Below are positions 1 through 9,424 of a stretch of DNA of 9,424 nucleotides, one piece after another; position 1 is the first letter of the stretch; the number at the start of each line of letters is the position of its first letter. Under the pieces are notes generated by a model. The model was not told the origin of the DNA and ran no database searches. It saw only the letters and a program-made list of their open reading frames with translations. Both the position numbers and the translations under genes were made by a program. This stretch comes from Verrucomicrobia bacterium UBA3869 (lineage in GTDB: Bacteria; Verrucomicrobiota; Verrucomicrobiia; Opitutales; UBA9783). The DNA lies in contig DGGR01000029.1 of the NCBI GenBank assembly GCA_002392285.1, positions 1 to 9,424 on the forward strand, read 5' to 3'.

Positions 1-1892
1 CTCACATAGAGCAAATGGAAAGGGTAGTAATTGCTTGCTACAAATGGTTATATGGAATAATTAGCCAAAAACGCAATTTTGTTGTGTTTTCTAGGGTTAT
101 TGGGTGCTGCAAATCAATAGGATTTAAGCTTAACGCAGGTTTTCATCGAATCATCGCGAAGGTTCGAAAAACCAAACCTGTACCAACGCGTCAAGGTTCA
201 GAGTTATTTCCTTATAAAGAATCTGCAGAACCTTTTGTACAATCGCGCGAAAGCATTTTTTTATCCACGGGTTCCGATGAAGAGCCTTTGGAAGTAAAAT
301 CGGCAGTAAAAAATACAGTTATACCGGAACCAGTGGTTGAAAAGCCTATAGAAAGCGTTGCGAGTCAAATTCATCCCGTAAAAGAAGCGCCTGTAAAAAC
401 GACGCAAATGGAAATGAACATGGAAGGTATTTCCATTCTTCCGAGTGAATCAGTGGAACTAGCAAGCAATGAGCTTCCTTCCAGGGCGGGGGATTATAAA
501 TTGCCGAGTTTAGATTTGCTAAAAGACCCACCGCCGGTGTTGCAGGATGGAAACGCGGAAGATTACTACGAAACTGCCAACAATTTGGTACAAAAACTGG
601 CTGAATTTGGCGTATCGGTTAAAGTAGAAAATATCCAAGCAGGTCCGGTGATTACGCGATATGAGGTAACACCGGCACGCGGGGTACGTGTTGAAAAGAT
701 TGCGACCTTGGACAAAAACATCGCCTTGGCTTTAAAAGCATTATCAGTGCGTATTCAAGCTCCTGTACCCGGGAAGGGGTGCGTAGGTATTGAAGTTCCT
801 AACCGTAAACCGTTACCGGTGTGTTTGCGCGAAATTTTAGCATCGCGTGCATGGGAGCAATCAGACGCAGAAATTCCGATTGTGTTAGGGAAGGAGGTAA
901 CTGGAAAGCCTATTGTAGCGGATTTGACCAAAATGCCGCACTTGTTGATTGCAGGCGCAACGGGTTCCGGGAAAACCGTATGTATCAACGCTATTATTGC
1001 GTCATTATTGTTCCGGGAAACGCCTAAAAACTTACGGTTTATTATGGTCGATCCAAAAATTGTTGAGATGAAAATTTACAACGATTTGCCGCATATGCTG
1101 ATTCCGGTTGTTACGGATCCCAAACGTGTACCTGGCGCTTTAAAATGGTTGATTTCTGAGATGGAACGCCGCTATAAGCTATTTGCAAATTACGGCGCGC
1201 GCAACATCACAACCTTCAATGAAAAATTGCGTGCTTTATCCGAAAGTGAATTGGCGGAAAAGAACTTAGAGCATTTGCCCTATATTGTGTGTATTATCGA
1301 TGAGTTAGCCGATTTAATGATGGTTGCGCCTGGCGATATTGAAACCTGCATCGCTCGTTTGGCTCAATTAGCACGTGCTGCCGGTATTCACTTGGTCATC
1401 GCAACCCAACGTCCTTCTGTTAATGTCATTACCGGTATTATTAAAGCAAATCTCCCCAGCCGTATTGCGTTTAAGGTGGCTTCCAAGGTGGATAGTCGAA
1501 CCATTTTGGATTTGGGAGGAGCCGATAATTTAATCGGAAGAGGGGATATGCTTTTTGTTCCTCCTGGAGCTTCTCAGTTGATTAGAGCTCAAGGAGCGTG
1601 GGTATCGGATGATGAAATTAACAACCTGGTTGAATTTTTGAGCTGCAATGGAAAGCCTAAGTTTTCCGAGGATATACAGCAGATTATTGAGGATGAATCC
1701 AATGAAGGAAGCTCTGAAGATGTTATAGGGGATGATGATAGTTTGTTACCCCAAGCTTTGGAAATCTTAAAGTCTTCCGATCGTATTTCAACCTCTTTGT
1801 TGCAACGACGCTTGAAAATTGGTTATAATCGCGCCGCCCGTATCATGGATGTGTTAACCGAACGCGGATTGGTTCCTCGGAATGTTGAATAA
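1..1892 (+). CDS. ftsK: DNA translocase FtsK/SpoIIIE, 5'-partial (frame stays open to the window edge)
   Basis: The ORF track starts at ATG 15, but the same frame has no stop back to base 3, so the N-terminal membrane domain probably lies upstream. A P/E/S-rich linker is followed by 'YKLPSLDLL'. Walker A is 'GATGSGKT' (954..977) and Walker B is 'VCIIDELADLMM'. 'ATQRPS' is present, as is the C-terminal winged-helix gamma domain 'LLQRRLKIGYNRAARIMDVL'. Confidence 0.93.
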   Translation, partial: HIEQMERVVIACYKWLYGIISQKRNFVVFSRVIGCCKSIGFKLNAGFHRIIAKVRKTKPVPTRQGSELFPYKESAEPFVQSRESIFLSTGSDEEPLEVKSAVKNTVIPEPVVEKPIESVASQIHPVKEAPVKTTQMEMNMEGISILPSESVELASNELPSRAGDYKLPSLDLLKDPPPVLQDGNAEDYYETANNLVQKLAEFGVSVKVENIQAGPVITRYEVTPARGVRVEKIATLDKNIALALKALSVRIQAPVPGKGCVGIEVPNRKPLPVCLREILASRAWEQSDAEIPIVLGKEVTGKPIVADLTKMPHLLIAGATGSGKTVCINAIIASLLFRETPKNLRFIMVDPKIVEMKIYNDLPHMLIPVVTDPKRVPGALKWLISEMERRYKLFANYGARNITTFNEKLRALSESELAEKNLEHLPYIVCIIDELADLMMVAPGDIETCIARLAQLARAAGIHLVIATQRPSVNVITGIIKANLPSRIAFKVASKVDSRTILDLGGADNLIGRGDMLFVPPGASQLIRAQGAWVSDDEINNLVEFLSCNGKPKFSEDIQQIIEDESNEGSSEDVIGDDDSLLPQALEILKSSDRISTSLLQRRLKIGYNRAARIMDVLTERGLVPRNVE

Positions 1893-1896
1893 CGCC

Positions 1897-2724
1897 TTAC
1901 GCTTGTTTCGTAAATACGCTACGTTCGCAGGGTATCGGGTGCTTTTTTAACCGATACGCAGCAACCAGCCCAATCAACAAGCATACAATTGAATACATTT
2001 GCCCACGCGTAAAGCAACCGATTAGGTGTGCATCAGGCTCGCGGAAGTATTCCAGTATATAACGTATCAGGCTGTAACCAATGACAAAATGGCTGGCAAG
2101 TAGTCCAGGATACCGATGCATACGCTCATCATGCGTTCGTTTTAAACTCCAGATAAACAGAACAAGTCCTTCTCCTAATGCTTCATAAAGTTGCGATGGG
2201 TGGCGCGCGAAACAATCCACTGGGAAAATTATCCCCCAAGGCATTTGAGTCATTCGGCCATAAACCTCGCCATTGATGAAATTAGCGCAACGACCCAAGA
2301 AAATTCCAAGGGTTCCGGGGACAATACATAAATCCGAAAGGGAAAGTACAGAAAGCTTTTGTTGTGCACCCCAAATGCACCAGCTGATAAACAACCCTAA
2401 ACATGCGCCATGGAATGCCATTCCACCATCCCAAATGCGTACTATAGCTAATGGGTTATGGATGTAATAATCCAAGTGATACAAGCATACGTAACCCAAA
2501 CGTCCTCCGATTAAAATGCCGCAAAAACTAGCAAATAAGTAGTTTTGTATTTGTTCGCGCGTTAAACGAATTTTGCCGCTATGAGCCCATCGGCAAAAAA
2601 TCCAATAGCCTATTAAAAACCCTAGTAGGTAGGCGCATCCGTACCATTTAATACCTTGAATACCCCAATGACTTGGAAATTTGATGATGAATGGATCCAG
2701 CGAATGTATCCAATAGCTAAGCAT
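1897..2724 (-). CDS. lgt: Prolipoprotein diacylglyceryl transferase
   Basis: 275-aa polytopic hydrophobic protein with Lgt hallmarks: 'IKWYGCAYLLGFLIGY', 'GGRLGY', 'GGMAFHGA', 'RHPSQLYEA'. Its ATG is only 5 nt downstream of the upstream gene's TAA, implying an operon. Its stop is 4 nt from the convergent ftsK stop. Confidence 0.9.
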   Translation of the reverse strand: MLSYWIHSLDPFIIKFPSHWGIQGIKWYGCAYLLGFLIGYWIFCRWAHSGKIRLTREQIQNYLFASFCGILIGGRLGYVCLYHLDYYIHNPLAIVRIWDGGMAFHGACLGLFISWCIWGAQQKLSVLSLSDLCIVPGTLGIFLGRCANFINGEVYGRMTQMPWGIIFPVDCFARHPSQLYEALGEGLVLFIWSLKRTHDERMHRYPGLLASHFVIGYSLIRYILEYFREPDAHLIGCFTRGQMYSIVCLLIGLVAAYRLKKHPIPCERSVFTKQA

Positions 2725-2729
2725 AAACG

Positions 2730-3104
2730 TTAATCGTTAAGCTGGGCTTCTTTTGCTTTTTCCAAATACCCATCATCCTGACGCTTAAAATTAACCGCAT
2801 TTTTTTGCATGTACGTATTGAAAATATCTTCAGGGGACATGCCTAAAACTTGTGCAATGCTAAGAACAAAATGCAAAATATCGATAAGCTCTACTTTTGC
2901 GTGCTCTAAATCCAATTTTTGATAATGTGCCCACCATTTCCAAGGAACACAATCTATCAATTCACTGACCTCTTGATTTAAAGCCGTTGCGTATTTTAAC
3001 AGCCATTCTCCTGCATGTTCGTGCAGAATCTTCTCAAATTCAGGCCCCAAAATACGGGCATTGAATTGATGCTGCTTATTCCACATCTCTTCAAGTTTAT
3101 CCAT
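2730..3104 (-). CDS. All-alpha NTP pyrophosphohydrolase, dimeric dUTPase-like / MazG superfamily
   Basis: It carries the acidic ExxE...ExxD signature ('NQEVSELID' ... 'AKVELIDILHF'). The 'PWKWW' and C-terminal 'KNAVNFKRQDDGY' motifs match my recollection of the dimeric dUTPase (dUTPase_2) family. I moved the start to ATG 3104 ('MDKLEEMWNKQ') because the longer ORF (to 3152) runs into the tRNA at 3118..3192. No SD precedes ATG 3104. ATG 3086 is an alternative start. Confidence 0.6.
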   Translation of the reverse strand: MDKLEEMWNKQHQFNARILGPEFEKILHEHAGEWLLKYATALNQEVSELIDCVPWKWWAHYQKLDLEHAKVELIDILHFVLSIAQVLGMSPEDIFNTYMQKNAVNFKRQDDGYLEKAKEAQLND

Positions 3105-3117
3105 CGTATTTACGATT

Positions 3118-3192
3118 TGGTACCCCGTGAGGGGATCGAACCCACGACCCATTGCTTAAAAGGCAAGTGCTCTACCGCTGAGCTAACGAGGC
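3118..3192 (-). tRNA. tRNA-Lys (anticodon UUU), 75 nt, CCA encoded
   Basis: Hand-folded cloverleaf on the minus strand: acceptor GCCTCGT/ACGGGGT (two G-U pairs), D arm GCTC-AGCGGTA-GAGC, anticodon arm CTTGC-CTTTTAA-GCAAT, variable loop GGGTC, T arm GTGGG-TTCGATC-CCCTC, discriminator A, CCA. There are two non-Watson-Crick pairs (C27-U43, U50-U64). The layout is close to E. coli tRNA-Lys as I recall it. Confidence 0.85.
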
Positions 3193-3276
3193 AAATTTGT
3201 TTTATAAATTAATCATCGGATGCGCTTTGTCAACGTTTGTTATAAAAATAAATCCTTTCTATTATTTATTGATTGA

Positions 3277-4218
3277 TTAAGCAGTTAAACGAGCGCCTAC
3301 CCAAATTGCGATATCGGGGCGTACTAAGGTAAACGAGGTGAAAAATTTAGACTCAATGGAAAAGCCGTCGTAACCCAAAACAGAACCGTAATCCTGGCAG
3401 AGTTTCATGTTATACATTGCTCCTCCGAACGGAGTCCAAACACCTTGAACTACTGCAGTAGAAGGAACAATTACAATACGTACTACCTTGCGATCATCTT
3501 CCCATAAGGAATCATTATTGGAGAAGGCAGTATCGCTTAGATATACGATCTCGATCTTGTAGTTGTATTGCGCTTGTTGAGCCTGAATAGTTTGAGGAGT
3601 GCGAGCAATATCCGTAGTGCTATTGCTATAGTAGAACGCAGGATCTTTGTCGATGTAAGGTTTTAAGGAGAAAGGCAAGAACACGTACCACGTTGTATTG
3701 GGTTTGATGTGTCCAGCGGTGCTCATCACCTGATGAATAGCGCTCCTAATACGATTGTGGCTAATACCACGAAGGGTATTATCATCGGCCGAGTTTTTGC
3801 TTTCCTTGTTCCATGGTAGGTAGTTTTCAGCCTTAATGGTATCAGGATTAACTGCTTCTAAGAATGAAGTTTCCAACATCTTTTGTGCATCGGCTGCATG
3901 GCCTTGTGCTATTTGTTGGATACGTGCGATATTTGCCAATGTGGAGCTTTCTCCTTCATCTTTCCAAGAAAGACCTACATGATCCCGGTAGGTGTAGGAT
4001 TTCGTTTGAATCATGATAGGATCGATTTCTAGCGGAACAACTCCCTCATGGTACGGAGCCATATGAGGATAATTGGACGGCTTATATACCGTTGTGCTTT
4101 TGCCATCAATACCGATGGCACGGAACAACCCCCGAAATGGGTTGTAATATACGTCAATAGCCGCATTTACGCTGGTCATGACCTCTGGGACGACTTCTGA
4201 TAAAACTGAAGTGGCCAT
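3277..4218 (-). CDS. Hypothetical protein with HK97-fold major-capsid / encapsulin-like sequence architecture
   Basis: Clean 313-aa ORF, ATG preceded by 'aaaggtaaaaact'. No signal peptide or TM segment is evident. The order of elements is typical of HK97-fold shell proteins. An N-arm is followed by an E-loop-like strand pair ('KSTTVYKPSNYPHMAPYHEG...IMIQTKSYTYRDHVGLSWKDE'). A long spine-helix candidate follows ('SSTLANIARIQQIAQGHAADAQKMLETSFLEAV'). Then comes an A-domain-like helix plus 'NTTWYVFLPFSLKPYI'. The C-terminal 'FTLVRPDIAIWVGARLTA' resembles the ends of lambda gpE ('ADPDEFVSVQLA') and T7 gp10 ('LRPEAAGAVVFKVE') as I remember them. That it is coding is likely. The function call is inference only. 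Confidence 0.5.
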   Translation of the reverse strand: MATSVLSEVVPEVMTSVNAAIDVYYNPFRGLFRAIGIDGKSTTVYKPSNYPHMAPYHEGVVPLEIDPIMIQTKSYTYRDHVGLSWKDEGESSTLANIARIQQIAQGHAADAQKMLETSFLEAVNPDTIKAENYLPWNKESKNSADDNTLRGISHNRIRSAIHQVMSTAGHIKPNTTWYVFLPFSLKPYIDKDPAFYYSNSTTDIARTPQTIQAQQAQYNYKIEIVYLSDTAFSNNDSLWEDDRKVVRIVIVPSTAVVQGVWTPFGGAMYNMKLCQDYGSVLGYDGFSIESKFFTSFTLVRPDIAIWVGARLTA

Positions 4219-4284
4219 AGTTTTTACCTTTATTTTTTATGTTTTTATTGTGGTTACACCAGTTTGTCTTTGTTAAAACAAATT

Positions 4285-4308
4285 CCTCCTTTTGATTTGC
4301 ACCAAAAG
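4285..4308 (-). promoter_or_regulatory. Leader hairpin (CUUUUG-8 nt-CAAAAG) overlapping a perfect AAGGAGG that has no gene behind it
   Basis: Stem arms are 4303..4308 and 4289..4294 with an 8-nt loop. AAGGAGG on the minus strand occupies 4291->4285, 67 nt upstream of the real ATG (4218). It is followed only by 'aatTTGTTTTAA'. The structure is visible in the sequence. Its function is unknown. Confidence 0.3.
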
Positions 4309-4405
4309 TGATGATACCCACATGCTCTGTGAGGACATGTTTTATACAATCGACAAGCGGGGGTCATACGCGTGGCCTAGTCCACTATTACGATGATATA
4401 TTGTC

Positions 4406-4436
4406 ATAATAACTACAAAAACATTTTTCTTGTCAA
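4406..4436 (-). promoter_or_regulatory. Candidate sigma70-type promoter for the capsid-like ORF (TTGACA-19 nt-TATTAT)
   Basis: On the minus strand, TTGACA is at 4436->4431 and TATTAT at 4411->4406. The 19-nt spacer is longer than optimal. The -35 box sits inside a 15-bp palindrome. This is sequence-pattern evidence only. Confidence 0.25.
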
Positions 4437-4480
4437 GAAACAAAGAAGTTTTTGAGCACTATCTTCCCTATGCCCGTTCG

Positions 4481-4509
4481 TTGACAATGCACTAGGGATT
4501 TGGTTGAAC
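4481..4509 (+). promoter_or_regulatory. Candidate truA promoter (TTGACA-17 nt-TTGAAC)
   Basis: A perfect -35 TTGACA is at 4481..4486. After a 17-nt spacer comes a weak -10-like hexamer at 4504..4509, ending 6 nt before ATG 4516. If this promoter is used, the truA mRNA would be leaderless or nearly so. Confidence 0.2.
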
Positions 4510-4515
4510 TTTTGT

Positions 4516-5274
4516 ATGCGTTGGAAATGTACATGCGCTTACGATGGAACGGATTATTTCGGATGGCAAAGCCAACCCAATCACAATACCATTCAAGACG
4601 CTATAGAAGCCCAATTACTCAGGGTTTTTAAGCATCCTGTCCGTATTCACGGCGGGGGTCGAACGGATGCTGGAGTTCATGCACATGGTCAGGTTTTCCA
4701 TTTCGATGCAGATTGGAATTATGGAGCCGATAAATTAAGGCTAGCCATCAATGTATGCTTGGCGCCGACCATTCGTATCTTAAAAGTTGAGCCCGTAAAG
4801 GCTGATTTTCATGCGCGTTATTCTGCCCATTGGAAGTGTTATCATTACCATTTTCAATGTCAACCATTGGATCCATTCGCGGTGCGTTATCGTTGGCAAA
4901 TTCCACAGATTTCTATCGACCGTATGCAGGCAACCGCTCAATTGTTGGTAGGAACGCACGATTTTCGCCGTTTTGGAAACAAAATAATGCCCAAAGAAAA
5001 TACTACAAAAACCATCCATTCTGCTGACATTATTCCACAAGATGACCACTTTGTTTTTTCGGTTATCGGATCAGGTTACCTCTACCATATGGTGCGAATC
5101 ATGATGGGTGTATTGGTGGCAAGTAGCCGTCATAACCTATCGATGGTTGAGCAATTGTTGAAAGGGGAAACACCCCCAGTGCCGATTGTACCCGCTCCCC
5201 CTCAAGGATTATTCTTAGAGTGGATTGATTACAATACCCATTCAGAGGGAAATTACGCTAAGCTAACAATCTAG
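4516..5274 (+). CDS. truA: tRNA pseudouridine(38-40) synthase TruA
   Basis: Motifs seen: 'CAYDGTDYFGWQSQ', the catalytic-Asp motif 'GGGRTDAGVHAHGQV', and 'GSGYLYHMVRIMMG'. I prefer ATG 4516 ('MRWKCTCAYDG'), which matches typical TruA N-termini. The ORF-track start TTG 4504 remains possible: 'AGGGA' lies 5 nt upstream of it. Confidence 0.9.
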   Translation: MRWKCTCAYDGTDYFGWQSQPNHNTIQDAIEAQLLRVFKHPVRIHGGGRTDAGVHAHGQVFHFDADWNYGADKLRLAINVCLAPTIRILKVEPVKADFHARYSAHWKCYHYHFQCQPLDPFAVRYRWQIPQISIDRMQATAQLLVGTHDFRRFGNKIMPKENTTKTIHSADIIPQDDHFVFSVIGSGYLYHMVRIMMGVLVASSRHNLSMVEQLLKGETPPVPIVPAPPQGLFLEWIDYNTHSEGNYAKLTI

Positions 5275-5289
5275 TTTTTAATAAAAATC

Positions 5290-6978
5290 TTAGGCTTTAA
5301 ACGCCGCACCTAGGCGTTTACCTAGCATGTAAGAGCTGCCGACAATAAGGATTGCTAAGAAGGTCATGGCCCATACACCTAACGCGCAGGATAAAAAGGT
5401 TCCAATGCCCAAAAAGTTTAACATTTCATAAATCGCTTTGGAGATAGGATAAAACACTTTCCTTTGCGCTAAAACCAAGGAATCGGATACAGCCAATAAG
5501 GTTTGTGAGAACACCAAGATAACGCCAGCTGTTAAATGAGCCGCAATTAAGGGCAGGGTTATCTTATGCAAAATTTTTATAAACGAACAACCGAACGTTT
5601 TCGCTACTTCTTCATACGCAACCGGTATTTGCTGTAACCCATTAACGCTCGTACGTACCATAAACGGCAATTTGCGAACCGCATAAGCAATAATCAACAG
5701 CCATGTTGGGTTTTTTGTTGGATTTAAGGCTGAAAACAACTGACCCTCTTGAGAAATGGCGAGCAAACCAAACGCAATGACCAAACTTGGGACCGCTAAG
5801 GGTAACATGGAGCATAAATCCAGAAAATTTCTGCCGGGTAATTTGGTACGTACAACGACAAATGCAATTCCCAATCCCAATATCATAGCGATGAGTGTAG
5901 CGCTGGATGCATAAATGATGCTGTTCTTAATAGCAGGAATTGCAACCGAATCCCCCAAAGCCGCCCAATAATTTTGGAGGGTAAATGCATTTGGCAATAA
6001 GGATTGATACCAATCTGTCGCGAAGGAGAACAGAATAACTACAAAATGAGGACTTAAGGCTACCAGCAGTATTCCTACGAAAACCGAAAAACAGGCAATA
6101 TTCCCTAGGAAACTGGGCTTTTTACATACGTGAACATGCGAAGCTTTGCTATTAGCCTGATAATCATTTTTTCTGAAAAACACCTGCATTAAGAAGTAAA
6201 ATATAAGCACTACCGTAAGCATGATAATGACTAAATCATAAGGTAGGGTGCTGCTACTAATTTCGTTTAATGCACGGTAAATATGTACTGAGGTAATACG
6301 GTTAAAGTTGAACATTAAGGGAATACCCAACTCAGTAAAGGACCAAATAAAGACCAAAGTGCATCCTGAGAATATTCCTGGGCGAATGAGTGGCAGGATA
6401 ATCGACCAAAACTTGCGCCAGGGCTTATTGCAAAAATTATTAGCAGCTTCGATTAACGTTGGATCTATATTAGCCAGTGCGGTAATAATGTTGAGGTAAA
6501 TAATAGGGAATGAAGTTAAGGCATTTAAAATGATAATGCTGGTCATCGGCGCAACACCCACCCAATCAATTGGGTTGGTAATCCATCCCAAACGCAGCAA
6601 CACCATATTAAGGATGCCGTAAGTCCCAAATAAATGCAAATACCCATTAGCAGCAATCAAAGAGGGCAAGATGATAGGAAATAAAATGACTTTAGTCAGG
6701 ATTGATTTACCCCAGAAATCATACTTGTAAGCTACAAAGGCTAAAACGAGCGAAATAACCAAGCTTAAAAAAGTAGCTCCAACTCCTATGAAAAAGGCGT
6801 TCAACACCCCGCGCATATATACGGGATTTCTGAAAATAATTTGGAAAAACTCTAATGTGAACCCATGGATGCTATCAGAAAAACCTCCCTTGATAACTAC
6901 GCTTAATGGTAATACAAAGAAAAAACCTAGAAATGCAAATGCGCTAATGTAAATGAGGGTTGCTAACCGCTTACTCAT
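5290..6978 (-). CDS. ABC transporter permease, fused two-domain type (FbpB/ThiP/AfuB-like; substrate unknown, iron(III) or thiamine class suggested)
   Basis: 562-aa protein with roughly 12 hydrophobic segments. It has two tandem halves, each carrying an EAA-type cytoplasmic loop: 'IEAANNFCNKPWRKFWSIILPLIRPG' and 'YEEVAKTFGCSFIKILHKITLPLIAAH'. No ATPase or binding-protein gene is present in the window. Confidence 0.85.
   Translation of the reverse strand: MSKRLATLIYISAFAFLGFFFVLPLSVVIKGGFSDSIHGFTLEFFQIIFRNPVYMRGVLNAFFIGVGATFLSLVISLVLAFVAYKYDFWGKSILTKVILFPIILPSLIAANGYLHLFGTYGILNMVLLRLGWITNPIDWVGVAPMTSIIILNALTSFPIIYLNIITALANIDPTLIEAANNFCNKPWRKFWSIILPLIRPGIFSGCTLVFIWSFTELGIPLMFNFNRITSVHIYRALNEISSSTLPYDLVIIMLTVVLIFYFLMQVFFRKNDYQANSKASHVHVCKKPSFLGNIACFSVFVGILLVALSPHFVVILFSFATDWYQSLLPNAFTLQNYWAALGDSVAIPAIKNSIIYASSATLIAMILGLGIAFVVVRTKLPGRNFLDLCSMLPLAVPSLVIAFGLLAISQEGQLFSALNPTKNPTWLLIIAYAVRKLPFMVRTSVNGLQQIPVAYEEVAKTFGCSFIKILHKITLPLIAAHLTAGVILVFSQTLLAVSDSLVLAQRKVFYPISKAIYEMLNFLGIGTFLSCALGVWAMTFLAILIVGSSYMLGKRLGAAFKA
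5298..5320. terminator. 8-bp hairpin (TAAACGCC-7 nt-GGCGTTTA) at the truA/permease convergence point
   Basis: The arms at 5298..5305 and 5313..5320 are perfect complements. The hairpin starts 24 nt after the truA stop, inside the last codons of the permease gene. There is no clear U-tract, so terminator function is uncertain. Confidence 0.2.
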
Positions 6979-7086: not shown

Positions 7087-9424
7087 TTAAAACAACTTTA
7101 AAAGATTTTCTATCTTATTGATCGGATTGGAACTGTCCTTTGGGGTCGCTTTCCCCTTTTTGGATTTACTTGGTTGTAATTTTGTATGGTTTAACAGCTC
7201 TGTTAACCCTCCATAATTGGGTTTGCCGAGTGTCCCATCAATCATACAACGCGGTCCAATGCCATAACCCAATTCCGTACGATTATTGGCATCAAACGTA
7301 AAGTGATCGTTAAATGGACTTTGTTGCGGCGCGCTGAATTGAACTTTGCACAATAAGCTTTGTTGATTCATTGGACGAGAAAAATCCGTACTTACTTGAC
7401 CATCAACATCAATTGCCAAATCGGCATTGGTTACATTGCCTTGGAATACGATTGGCTTTGCTGCATCCCGTTGTAAATTCAATGCGAATTTAGAAAAATC
7501 TATTGTTTTCGCGTAACTAGACAAAAACTCAATAGCTCCTGTCCCTGGCACTGTTATATCGGTTGCAGATTGCAACAAGGAAGTAATACCAGATACCGCT
7601 TGAGTTCCGGTAGATACGGTTTTGCTCGGTATAAATCTTCCATTGGTAGCTTGAACAGATACATGAGCTGTCCCATTTTGTAAATGCTCCAGATCGCCTT
7701 TAACATCCGCATTAATCCCTGCCGTTCCACTCAATTGCCCATATAACGATAGGGGATATTGGAAATAAGCTGGTATATTCCACATTTTGCTTAATTGCAT
7801 ACGATCGGCTAACAGCGATCCTTCAACATGCTGTTGATTGAGATCATACAATGCGTGCCCTTGAACGTTACCATCACAACATTGCATACCAAAATTTTTA
7901 ACGGCAATCACCGTTGGAGTGATGTTAATACTGCTGAAGAAATTCTTAAGTTCTAAATCGGGAATGGACTTTAGCTGAACCTCTATATTACCTTGAATGG
8001 GCAAGGTAAATTTAGCTTTTGCTTCTGGAGTTTTCAAGGTACTCGCCGTTGATACAGCCGAAGTATTCGATACTGTACTGCCAACAGCCTTTGGTTGAGT
8101 CGTTTTAAGCGCATCTTGAATGGACTTCACTAACGCCATCCAATCGCTTGCCCATAGCTTATCGCTGGTAATTTTACCTGACAACTTATTCTGTTGGGTT
8201 AACGTTTGCTGAAAGTTTAAATCACTAATGTGATTTTCATGCTTTAAAACAATCGATCCATCCAATTGATGGCTTTGCTTTGAACCTTGGGTATAGTGGT
8301 TCTTGAATGATAAATCAAAGGGTACCGATGATAAGGATAAATGAGCTGATGCATCTGCAGATTTGTTCTTAGCTTCCCATTGCCATTTGCTCTGGAAATT
8401 ACCGAAAAATCCTGGGTATTTTAATGCAAAGGGTTGTACGCTTAGCGCATCTAGTTTGGCTTCCACAGATCCATGTGTGGTTCGGATTTGGTTATCATAC
8501 CCAGTAGCATCAGCATCCACTAATAACAGAGGCTCGTTTTGCTGAGGAGCATCAATCCGTAAATTTTTAACCCCAAAGTGCCATTTGTGTACCTGACGTC
8601 CACAATTCAATTGATCAATACGGATACCTTTCAAACGCAGCTGTTCCTGATTTTCAAGATATAGAGCGAAATTATCCACCTTTAGAGGTTGCGTTAATTC
8701 AAATTCGAATCCTCCTGGTGCTGATTTAATATGTCCTTGGGTTGACAATGTTCCTTTTGTTCCAATACCCTGGTACTGTACTAGATCCAAAGGACATTGA
8801 TTTACTTGAATTTGAACCAATGGGGTAGGAGAAGAATCAATCAACACCCCCTTAAGCAAGTTAAAATTTTTTAATGATTTACAAACTATCCAATAGTTTT
8901 GTTTAGAATTACCATAAAGTTCACAAACAAATTGCAAAATCCCATATTGCTCGGTTTTTAAAGTATATATAAAATTGTATGAGCATTTTAAATGTAGTTC
9001 TGGATTTAAAGAACATTTTAACGAGCTTAAATCCAAATAAGATTTAGCTAAATTCTGATTAAAATCTAGATCCCCAATACACGTATAGGATGGATTTTTT
9101 AACTGATCATGTCCTTCTCCTTTGACAGTATAATGTAAGAAAGGGGTATTCTCATTATTCCCCTGAACCGCCAAGTCAGCTTGATAATTTAATGAAGAGG
9201 AATCGTTTTTAATAGCACATTTGCCTTTAAAGCGAGCAAGCGTGTTGGTTAATAATTTTTGACGATTAATGTTGATTTGATCGCAATAGATAGCAATAGG
9301 TTTTGTGGTATCTATGACCCATTCTTGCTTTTTATCATCAAAAGATACTTGGATTGTTCCTTCGGTAATATGAGCGCCAATAAAATGACCCTGTGATTCA
9401 AGATAGGGATTAATAAAGCCAAAC
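7087..9424 (-). CDS. Large AsmA/TamB-like envelope protein, 5'-partial (gene start beyond the window end)
   Basis: The ORF track begins at TTG 9174. I translated 9175..9423 in the same frame by hand and found no stop ('FGFINPYLESQGHFIGAHITEGTIQVSFDDKKQEWVIDTTK...SSSLNYQAD'), so the gene continues past the window. Composition is Q/N/S/T/G-rich and looks beta-rich. The C-terminal 'IDGTLGKPNYGGLTELL' resembles the 'GTLxxPxx' motif near the end of AsmA-family proteins, and a Lys-rich tail follows. The family call is tentative. Confidence 0.5.
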   Translation of the reverse strand, partial: FGFINPYLESQGHFIGAHITEGTIQVSFDDKKQEWVIDTTKPIAIYCDQININRQKLLTNTLARFKGKCAIKNDSSSLNYQADLAVQGNNENTPFLHYTVKGEGHDQLKNPSYTCIGDLDFNQNLAKSYLDLSSLKCSLNPELHLKCSYNFIYTLKTEQYGILQFVCELYGNSKQNYWIVCKSLKNFNLLKGVLIDSSPTPLVQIQVNQCPLDLVQYQGIGTKGTLSTQGHIKSAPGGFEFELTQPLKVDNFALYLENQEQLRLKGIRIDQLNCGRQVHKWHFGVKNLRIDAPQQNEPLLLVDADATGYDNQIRTTHGSVEAKLDALSVQPFALKYPGFFGNFQSKWQWEAKNKSADASAHLSLSSVPFDLSFKNHYTQGSKQSHQLDGSIVLKHENHISDLNFQQTLTQQNKLSGKITSDKLWASDWMALVKSIQDALKTTQPKAVGSTVSNTSAVSTASTLKTPEAKAKFTLPIQGNIEVQLKSIPDLELKNFFSSINITPTVIAVKNFGMQCCDGNVQGHALYDLNQQHVEGSLLADRMQLSKMWNIPAYFQYPLSLYGQLSGTAGINADVKGDLEHLQNGTAHVSVQATNGRFIPSKTVSTGTQAVSGITSLLQSATDITVPGTGAIEFLSSYAKTIDFSKFALNLQRDAAKPIVFQGNVTNADLAIDVDGQVSTDFSRPMNQQSLLCKVQFSAPQQSPFNDHFTFDANNRTELGYGIGPRCMIDGTLGKPNYGGLTELLNHTKLQPSKSKKGKATPKDSSNPINKIENLLKLF

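Follow-up and report, generated by a model that had tools for sequence, protein, structure and literature searches.

We analysed a 9,424-nucleotide (nt) stretch of Verrucomicrobia bacterium UBA3869 (contig DGGR01000029.1), here called the window, in which a 313-amino-acid (aa) open reading frame (ORF) matching no known protein family lies among host genes. The ORF is intact and occupies positions 3277–4218 on the reverse strand, between truA (4504–5274, forward strand; PF01416, 6e-36) and a reverse-strand tRNA-Lys(UUU) gene (3118–3192; found by ARAGORN and matched by the Rfam tRNA model at 62.9 bits). Beyond the tRNA lie a dUTPase_2/MazG-like gene (2730–3104, reverse strand; PF08761, 7e-21) and the host genes lgt (1897–2724, reverse strand) and ftsK (15–1892, forward strand). 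An initial annotation had described the ORF as an orphan HK97-fold capsid or encapsulin-like gene embedded among housekeeping genes. Its coordinates, strand and length for the ORF proved correct, as did the neighbours truA, tRNA-Lys, lgt and ftsK and the long upstream region (285 nt between the ORF and truA), although it missed the dUTPase_2/MazG-like gene between the tRNA and lgt. It was also right that the window holds no portal, terminase, protease, tail or integrase gene, and none is present in the corresponding 13-kb contig of a sister strain (L001). The guanine-plus-cytosine (GC) content is about 41% throughout the window, with no compositional break. The gene is a phage-derived orphan in a bacterial chromosome, from a new and very divergent family: a phage late gene, which occupies the major capsid protein (MCP) slot in T7-type contigs, has here a copy in the host. 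A domesticated capsid or encapsulin is not supported as a headline claim.

The viral origin proposed by the initial annotation is shown by nucleotide identity, the gene and its upstream region being 77–92% identical to the corresponding alleles in T7-type phage contigs. By blastn, window positions 3242–4444 align at 90% nucleotide identity to positions 9696–10974 of one phage contig (L007) and at 77–88% to the other phage contigs, and neither blastn nor tblastx found a match to these contigs in the rest of the window. The shared DNA is a reverse-strand cassette of about 1.2 kb (approximately 3241–4444) that begins with a promoter and a structured leader, continues with the ORF and ends with the ribosome site and dead start codon of the following phage gene. 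At its left homology limit is a promoter-like region (4406–4444) with TTGACA at 4436–4431 and TATTAT-like −10 candidates at 4413–4406, common to phage contigs L009, L006 and L003 and to an upstream copy in L007. At its right homology limit is a 3′ tail (3241–3276) made up of the intergenic sequence and ribosome-binding site of the next phage gene, whose start codon has been mutated in the host from ATG to ATA (3243–3241). BLAST places the two limits at 4400–4444 and 3242–3250. L007 alone has an extra ~60–120 nt between promoter and leader (L007 9740–9820), containing an inverted repeat resembling GGTGGACAAGTGACCTAGTCC...GGACTAGTTATCGTAATGGACTAGG.

The most conserved part of the cassette is its 5′ leader of about 190 nt (4219–4412), which is almost invariant in the host and in all phage alleles (L007 9806–10000, L009 722–919, L006 6203–6398 and L003 3455–3649), while the coding sequence is just 76–92% identical across the same alleles. 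Seven helices are predicted in it from the alignment and RNAalifold. The 5′ helices show compensatory double changes in five pairs, a number reached in none of 500 shuffles, and an AAGGAGG box that lies some 70 nt before the ATG is paired in one predicted helix. Rfam contains no family that matches the leader; it may serve as a translational operator or recombination linker, or mark a processing site. A 37-codon Cys-rich ORF within it was considered and rejected, being broken in L006 and L009. Conservation among the phages is also seen in the final codons and at the junction with the following gene, and homology in the host stops at the same conserved junctions as does allele exchange between phages.

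The cassette sits between two outward-facing host −35-like boxes, one directed towards truA and the other towards tRNA-Lys. Immediately beyond each cassette end (3224–3235 and 4479–4490) is one copy of a 12-nt inverted repeat, CGTTGACAA(A/T)GC; the copies resemble −35 regions, one for tRNA-Lys and one for truA, whose promoters diverge, and the cassette therefore appears to have been inserted between back-to-back host promoters. This pair of boxes is the sole flanking repeat, and no direct repeats border the cassette. Neither an integrase gene nor any further phage fragment was found in the window or in L001, together about 20 kb of context. The tRNA-Lys gene follows directly downstream in the same orientation. 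Because no terminator-like site was found between the ORF and tRNA-Lys, transcription could possibly read through from the ORF into tRNA-Lys, the dUTPase_2/MazG-like gene and lgt.

Relatives of the 313-aa protein are extremely rare. No match was found in Pfam, PHROGs, NCBIfam or PDB sequences (none at E ≤ 1 in the family libraries), six members of the family scanned at E ≤ 10 against Pfam, PHROG and PDB profiles retrieved nothing of relevance and no capsid family, whether Phage_capsid, Phage_cap_E, PF19821 or others in Pfam or the major head families of PHROG, and PADLOC models matched neither the host nor the phage allele. Searching 5.8 billion protein clusters yielded just seven relatives, a number that did not grow when 1.84 billion representatives were searched with a profile. 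Homologues were absent from 185,579 GTDB species genomes, from IMG/VR and, by tblastn, from INPHARED. One relative (P0001) is 98% identical and occupies the same chromosomal site in the sister strain, and four more (P0002–P0005; 61–86% aa identity) all lie in phage contigs of 14–32 kb. Further alleles were found via a neighbouring gene in four contigs of the same phage group (L092–L095). Chromosomal copies are thus known in two near-identical strains only. The orphan family is probably that of a capsid protein which has diverged beyond what current profile libraries can recognize.

The phage contigs carry a virion module laid out like that of T7. About 21 kb of each 29–32-kb contig was analysed. 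The order begins with a terS-like gene, so called by its size (with a weak terminase match, phrog_3064), followed by several genes of no assigned function and a hexapeptide-repeat protein, a 563-aa portal (phrog_332, 4e-16; a family matched also by T7 gp8 itself), 135-aa and 62-aa genes and a Q-rich, 286-aa scaffold-like gene. On the opposite strand, genes for a RuvC-like resolvase and a 203-aa protein come next, and after them stands a 312-aa gene, the homologue of the window ORF. It is followed by a 347-aa gene, in some contigs a gene of 302–313 aa (the 305-aa gene, absent from L003 and L006), a 207-aa tail-A-like gene (phrog_394, weak), a 749-aa tail-B-like gene (phrog_376, 3e-11) and genes of 155, 699 and about 1,290 aa. 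This order corresponds to T7 genes 8–16. Every phage contig has the 312-aa gene in its virion module, between the scaffold-like gene and tail tubular A and B, so that the phage homologues have the head-morphogenesis surroundings that the window copy lacks. No integrase gene was seen in the analysed part of any contig. Searches for relatives via the portal and tail B found none in IMG/VR and, in INPHARED, only Dunaliella viridis virus SI2 (NC_023841), at 28% identity over a quarter of tail B. One contig (L095, AUXO013142077.1) belongs to the sheep rumen metagenome AUXO01, reportedly that of Shi et al. 2014, and phage and host contigs alike (L095, L092–L094, L003 and L001) come from gut or rumen-type metagenomes.

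Within the phages the gene evolves fast and moves between lineages. Pairwise dN/dS (omega) is 0.46–0.77 in all between-lineage pairs and 0.17–0.51 among near-identical alleles, compared with mostly 0.14–0.4 in the portal, RuvC, tail and core genes. In the 312-aa gene the dS between L007 and L009 is 0.11, versus 0.53–0.65 in flanking genes. The reverse is seen in L006 and L003, in which tail B and the 699-aa protein are 96–97% identical and dN is 0.02–0.09 in flanking genes, yet dN reaches 0.26 in the 312-aa gene. The tree of the 312-aa gene thus conflicts with the trees of its neighbours, and it follows that the gene has been exchanged as an allele cassette between phage lineages; the sequences indicate that this exchange would run through the conserved flanks, namely the leader and the 3′ junction. 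The 286-aa scaffold-like gene also evolves fast, with an omega of 0.57–0.74. Alleles of the L007 type and of L009 form a group with the host allele (dS 0.13), while L006 and L003 stand 0.4–0.5 away from all of these. Because the host allele nests inside phage diversity and the gene is fixed in every phage virion module, transfer from phage to host is the parsimonious reading.

Is the 312-aa protein a capsid protein? We consider this likely on the basis of gene position and secondary structure. Its gene occupies the MCP slot, since the gene order parallels those of T7 and SI2, and the size of the protein counts in the same direction. Structure prediction contributes little: AlphaFold2 run on a six-sequence alignment gave an unusable model with a predicted local distance difference test (pLDDT) score of 36, and Foldseek found no match to this model in PDB or BFVD at E < 0.4. 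DSSP assigns to the low-confidence model a 31-residue helix (93–123), shorter helices and a C-terminal hairpin (291–312), a predicted arrangement that is weakly compatible with the spine helix and P-domain strands of an HK97-type protein. Direct comparisons with known capsid proteins were negative, whether by BLASTP against T7 gp10 or by hhalign against the SI2 MCP alone, an SI2-type alignment and a nine-phage T7-like alignment (probability <1.5% against the alignments), the profiles being shallow and of low power. These hhalign negatives are weak, because a likely true pair used as a control, the 207-aa protein against T7 gp11 and SI2 tail A, scored only P = 0.02. A hidden Markov model of the SI2-type MCP matched no ORF in the phage contigs, and a codon-bias ranking of phage genes did not single out the 312-aa gene. 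The initial annotation had seen in the ORF the linear layout of an HK97-fold shell protein, which none of the Pfam, PHROG, NCBIfam, PDB-sequence, AlphaFold2 or Foldseek results bears out. Its suggestion of a capsid-like C-terminus fared somewhat better: the best local hhalign match pairs family residues 279–305 with columns 297–323 of the T7-like alignment (LVRPDIA/LRPEAA), at a non-significant P of 0.07. The claim that this is a capsid gene therefore stands as to viral origin and to the MCP slot in the phages, while the HK97 fold stays a positional argument.

The 347-aa gene next to it (L007 10973–12016, L009 1887–2927, L006 7395–8408 and L003 4611–5651; proteins P0128–P0133) was tried as an alternative MCP on the strength of three collinear BLASTP scraps against T7 gp10, and was rejected since its model is all-beta; on this model a capsid role for it is unlikely. 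The prediction has 17 strands and no long helix (pLDDT 45). Its best Foldseek match in PDB is the double-jelly-roll capsid protein of Sulfolobus turreted icosahedral virus (E = 8e-4, template-modelling score ~0.2), followed by GH172/DUF2961 proteins and tandem beta-sandwiches. The N-terminal 220 aa are strongly conserved, with Cys/His-rich motifs, and the C-terminal 125 aa are variable. A jelly-roll-like candidate inside the head–tail module of a tailed phage is noteworthy, given here with the low confidence of its model.

The host copy has diverged in a manner that suggests relaxed or altered constraint. Its ORF is intact and its promoter, leader and start codon are kept. Against every phage allele it has four private in-frame indels (−5, +2, +2 and +2 codons) and, at sites where the phage lineages never vary, 12 private replacements, among them W83R, Y112H, G208D, Y292S and V294E. 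The two sister phage branches have 2 and 3 such replacements, with comparable numbers of synonymous changes (9 on the host branch versus 6 and 4). Synteny and dN/dS had been proposed as checks by the initial annotation. The order truA, ORF, tRNA-Lys, lgt was recovered in the sister strain, whose contig has the identical site and continues from truA through the ORF, tRNA-Lys, the dUTPase_2/MazG-like gene, lgt and ftsK to mreC and mreB; the truA synteny of the window is found both there and in contig L002. Between the two host strains the 313-aa gene differs by seven nonsynonymous and three synonymous substitutions, an omega of 0.65 compared with 0.09–0.14 in truA, lgt and ftsK, so that the dN/dS check points to weaker constraint on the basis of ten substitutions. 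One substitution in L001 breaks an otherwise invariant base pair of the leader.

We favour, at a probability of about 60%, the reading that a single phage late-gene cassette was captured, most probably one with a divergent MCP gene, and that it is now a young relic and neither an encapsulin nor a part of a gene transfer agent (GTA). Under this reading a 1.2-kb cassette would have entered the chromosome of a rumen Verrucomicrobiota bacterium between the divergent truA and tRNA-Lys promoters. The donors would be uncultured T7-type podophages in which the gene is a core part of the virion module and, judging from position and secondary structure, most probably encodes a very divergent MCP. There it evolves fast and is swapped as a cassette, an exchange that uses the conserved leader and 3′ junction. 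The bacterial copy has most likely ceased to form phage capsids and would be a young relic under relaxed constraint, possibly decaying. Several observations weigh against this account. All four host indels keep the frame and there is no stop in the ORF, which is improbable under pure neutrality (about 1% when the indels alone are counted and are taken to have arisen in the host), and selection for an intact protein could be responsible. The donor phage is unsampled, and the host-private changes may predate capture. Host and phage omega are statistically indistinguishable, with 10 substitutions only. On the capsid side, no sequence, profile or structure result supports an HK97 fold; an omega of 0.2–0.77 and allele swapping are unusual for an MCP, which is usually among the most conserved phage genes; and another capsid gene might lie in the part of each phage genome outside the analysis.

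These last points lead to the alternative to which we give most weight after the favoured one, although we consider it doubtful: that the gene is phage-derived and encodes some other fast-evolving late protein (decoration, head-fibre or host-interaction), the true MCP being elsewhere in the phage genomes. Besides the high omega, the mosaic allele exchange and the 8–10 kb of each contig that fell outside the analysis, such a role would account for the lack of similarity to any MCP family in phages whose portal and tail B were found by PHROG models. However, in T7-type genomes the MCP lies between scaffold and tail tubular A, including in SI2, which has the same portal and tail families, and of the other genes in the slot the 347-aa one is all-beta and the 305-aa one dispensable, being missing from L003 and L006. 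A length of 312 aa, a predicted long central helix and a predicted C-terminal hairpin would suit an HK97-type protein, and the best local match to T7-like MCPs, although not significant, is a position-matched C-terminal LRPE/VRPD motif. A different view of how the DNA arrived makes the gene the last survivor of a decayed prophage once integrated beside tRNA-Lys. The presence of phage-derived DNA, its position adjoining a tRNA gene and the relaxed constraint on the host copy all agree with this view, and the initial annotation, which had offered a phage relic among its options, was right to that extent. What remains, however, is a single 1.2-kb unit running from a promoter to the next start codon, whose ends are the conserved junctions of phage allele exchange, with no further phage fragment in the window or L001, no integrase gene, and no direct repeats flanking the cassette that could represent attachment sites. 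The insert also lies on the 5′ (promoter) side of the tRNA gene, whereas tRNA-targeting integrases use the tRNA 3′ end, and the ~21 kb analysed in each phage contig contains no integrase. Capture of a single cassette fits at least as well, and we favour it over prophage decay, which we regard as unlikely, because of the clean single-cassette structure and its location on the promoter side of the tRNA.

The remaining alternatives give the host copy a function. In one, it is a domesticated anti-phage decoy: a variant subunit that co-assembles with, or titrates, the shell or scaffold proteins of a phage and so poisons head assembly, expressed from the phage's own promoter and leader either on infection by a related phage or constitutively. 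Phages would answer by evolving the gene fast and swapping it as a cassette, and the phage gene is indeed fast-evolving and allele-exchanged, as the target of host pressure would be. The ORF has stayed intact despite the four in-frame indels and about 30 substitutions on the host branch, promoter, leader and start codon are kept, and two strains with a dS of 0.05–0.13 in their flanking genes carry the gene at the same site. The replacements fall in phage-invariant patches, as those of an assembly-interface variant would, and parts of the literature name capsid proteins as common targets of bacterial immunity. We nevertheless think this improbable: PADLOC has no match, the adjacent genes are housekeeping genes with no defence genes among them, the gene is confined to two near-identical strains, the omega of 0.65 between host strains fits neutrality, the L001 mutation breaks a predicted leader pair, and the proposal builds on a capsid identity that is itself inferred. 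Among its options the initial annotation had listed an encapsulin-like nanocompartment and membership of a dispersed GTA-like or satellite system, in keeping with an intact ORF that has its own promoter and stands isolated among housekeeping genes. Neither is supported by the present data, and we hold both to be very unlikely. There is no encapsulin, GTA or other match in Pfam or NCBIfam, no cargo, portal, terminase or tail gene in the ~20 kb of context, and no homologue in 185,579 species genomes; all non-identical relatives lie inside phage virion modules, and the host copy has changes at sites where functional phage copies never vary.

Among known systems, T7 offers the closest parallel. 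Gene 10 (gp10A) stands in the same slot as the 312-aa gene, in the order portal, scaffold, gene, tail tubular A, tail tubular B and internal core proteins, and its product is similar in size (345 versus 312 aa). T7 gene 10 has its own promoter and a conserved structured leader, as does the 312-aa gene. The phages described here differ from T7 in showing no significant sequence or profile similarity in this protein, in the divergent RuvC/203-aa pair inserted upstream of the gene and the all-beta 347-aa gene downstream of it, and in the fast evolution of the gene and its swapping between lineages. The portal (phrog_332), tail A (phrog_394) and tail B (phrog_376) families recur in SI2, whose order is MCP, small accessory gene, tail A, tail B; its MCP is recognized by PF19821 and phrog_3437, whereas the 312-aa family is not. 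The host locus resembles cryptic prophage remnants in having phage DNA among housekeeping genes, beside a tRNA and under relaxed constraint, and is unlike them in being one complete, clean-edged expression cassette with an intact ORF common to two strains. Likeness to encapsulins extends at most to a possible HK97 fold and to a chromosomal site without other virion genes; unlike encapsulins, the gene has no family match (for example, to Linocin_M18), no cargo gene and no conservation in bacteria, and its nearest phage relatives are virion-module genes at 86% aa identity. Gag-derived restriction factors are a conceptual precedent for a capsid-derived decoy, of which the host gene, if it had that role, would be a bacterial counterpart. 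The Gag-derived factors Fv1 and enJS56A1, Cpm of Staphylococcus aureus pathogenicity islands (SaPIs) and Sid of P4 offer a conceptual analogy only, that of a resident protein interfering with viral shell assembly; they are experimentally shown and belong to other lineages, whereas the window gene is known from its sequence. Capsid redirection by SaPIs is among the matters described in PMC12409344.

FtsK of the window is closest to proteins of Verrucomicrobiota/Opitutaceae metagenome-assembled genomes (MAGs), at 61–63% identity, and the host is therefore a distant, low-GC member of the Verrucomicrobiota. The Verrucomicrobiota MAGs reached via ftsK were high-GC and not syntenic. A search via truA for an empty site or for closer host relatives gave, as its nearest match, a sequence of 49% identity in a metagenome-contig collection, also not syntenic. 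The dUTPase_2/MazG-like ORF has a listed start at 3152 (140 aa, and so called in public contigs too) that overlaps tRNA-Lys, and its true start is probably Met17 at 3104. This gene is 100% identical between the two host strains, in which flanking genes have a dS of 0.05–0.13, and it matches phage pyrophosphohydrolase PHROGs, yet it has no counterpart in the phage contigs. The window also contains an ABC-type permease gene (5290–6978, reverse strand) and a 695-aa ORF (7087–9174, reverse strand) with no Pfam, NCBIfam or PADLOC match.

These results link previously unplaced T7-type podophage contigs of about 30 kb to a rare, low-GC Verrucomicrobiota host through 90% DNA identity over the cassette. 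They place a new orphan family in the capsid slot of these phages, probably a capsid protein beyond the reach of current profile libraries. They also provide a clean example of one late-gene cassette, with an ultra-conserved structured leader at its boundary, that moves between phages and into a host. If the host copy is functional, it would represent a new type of capsid-derived immunity; if it is not, it would be an ordinary, young relic of phage DNA.

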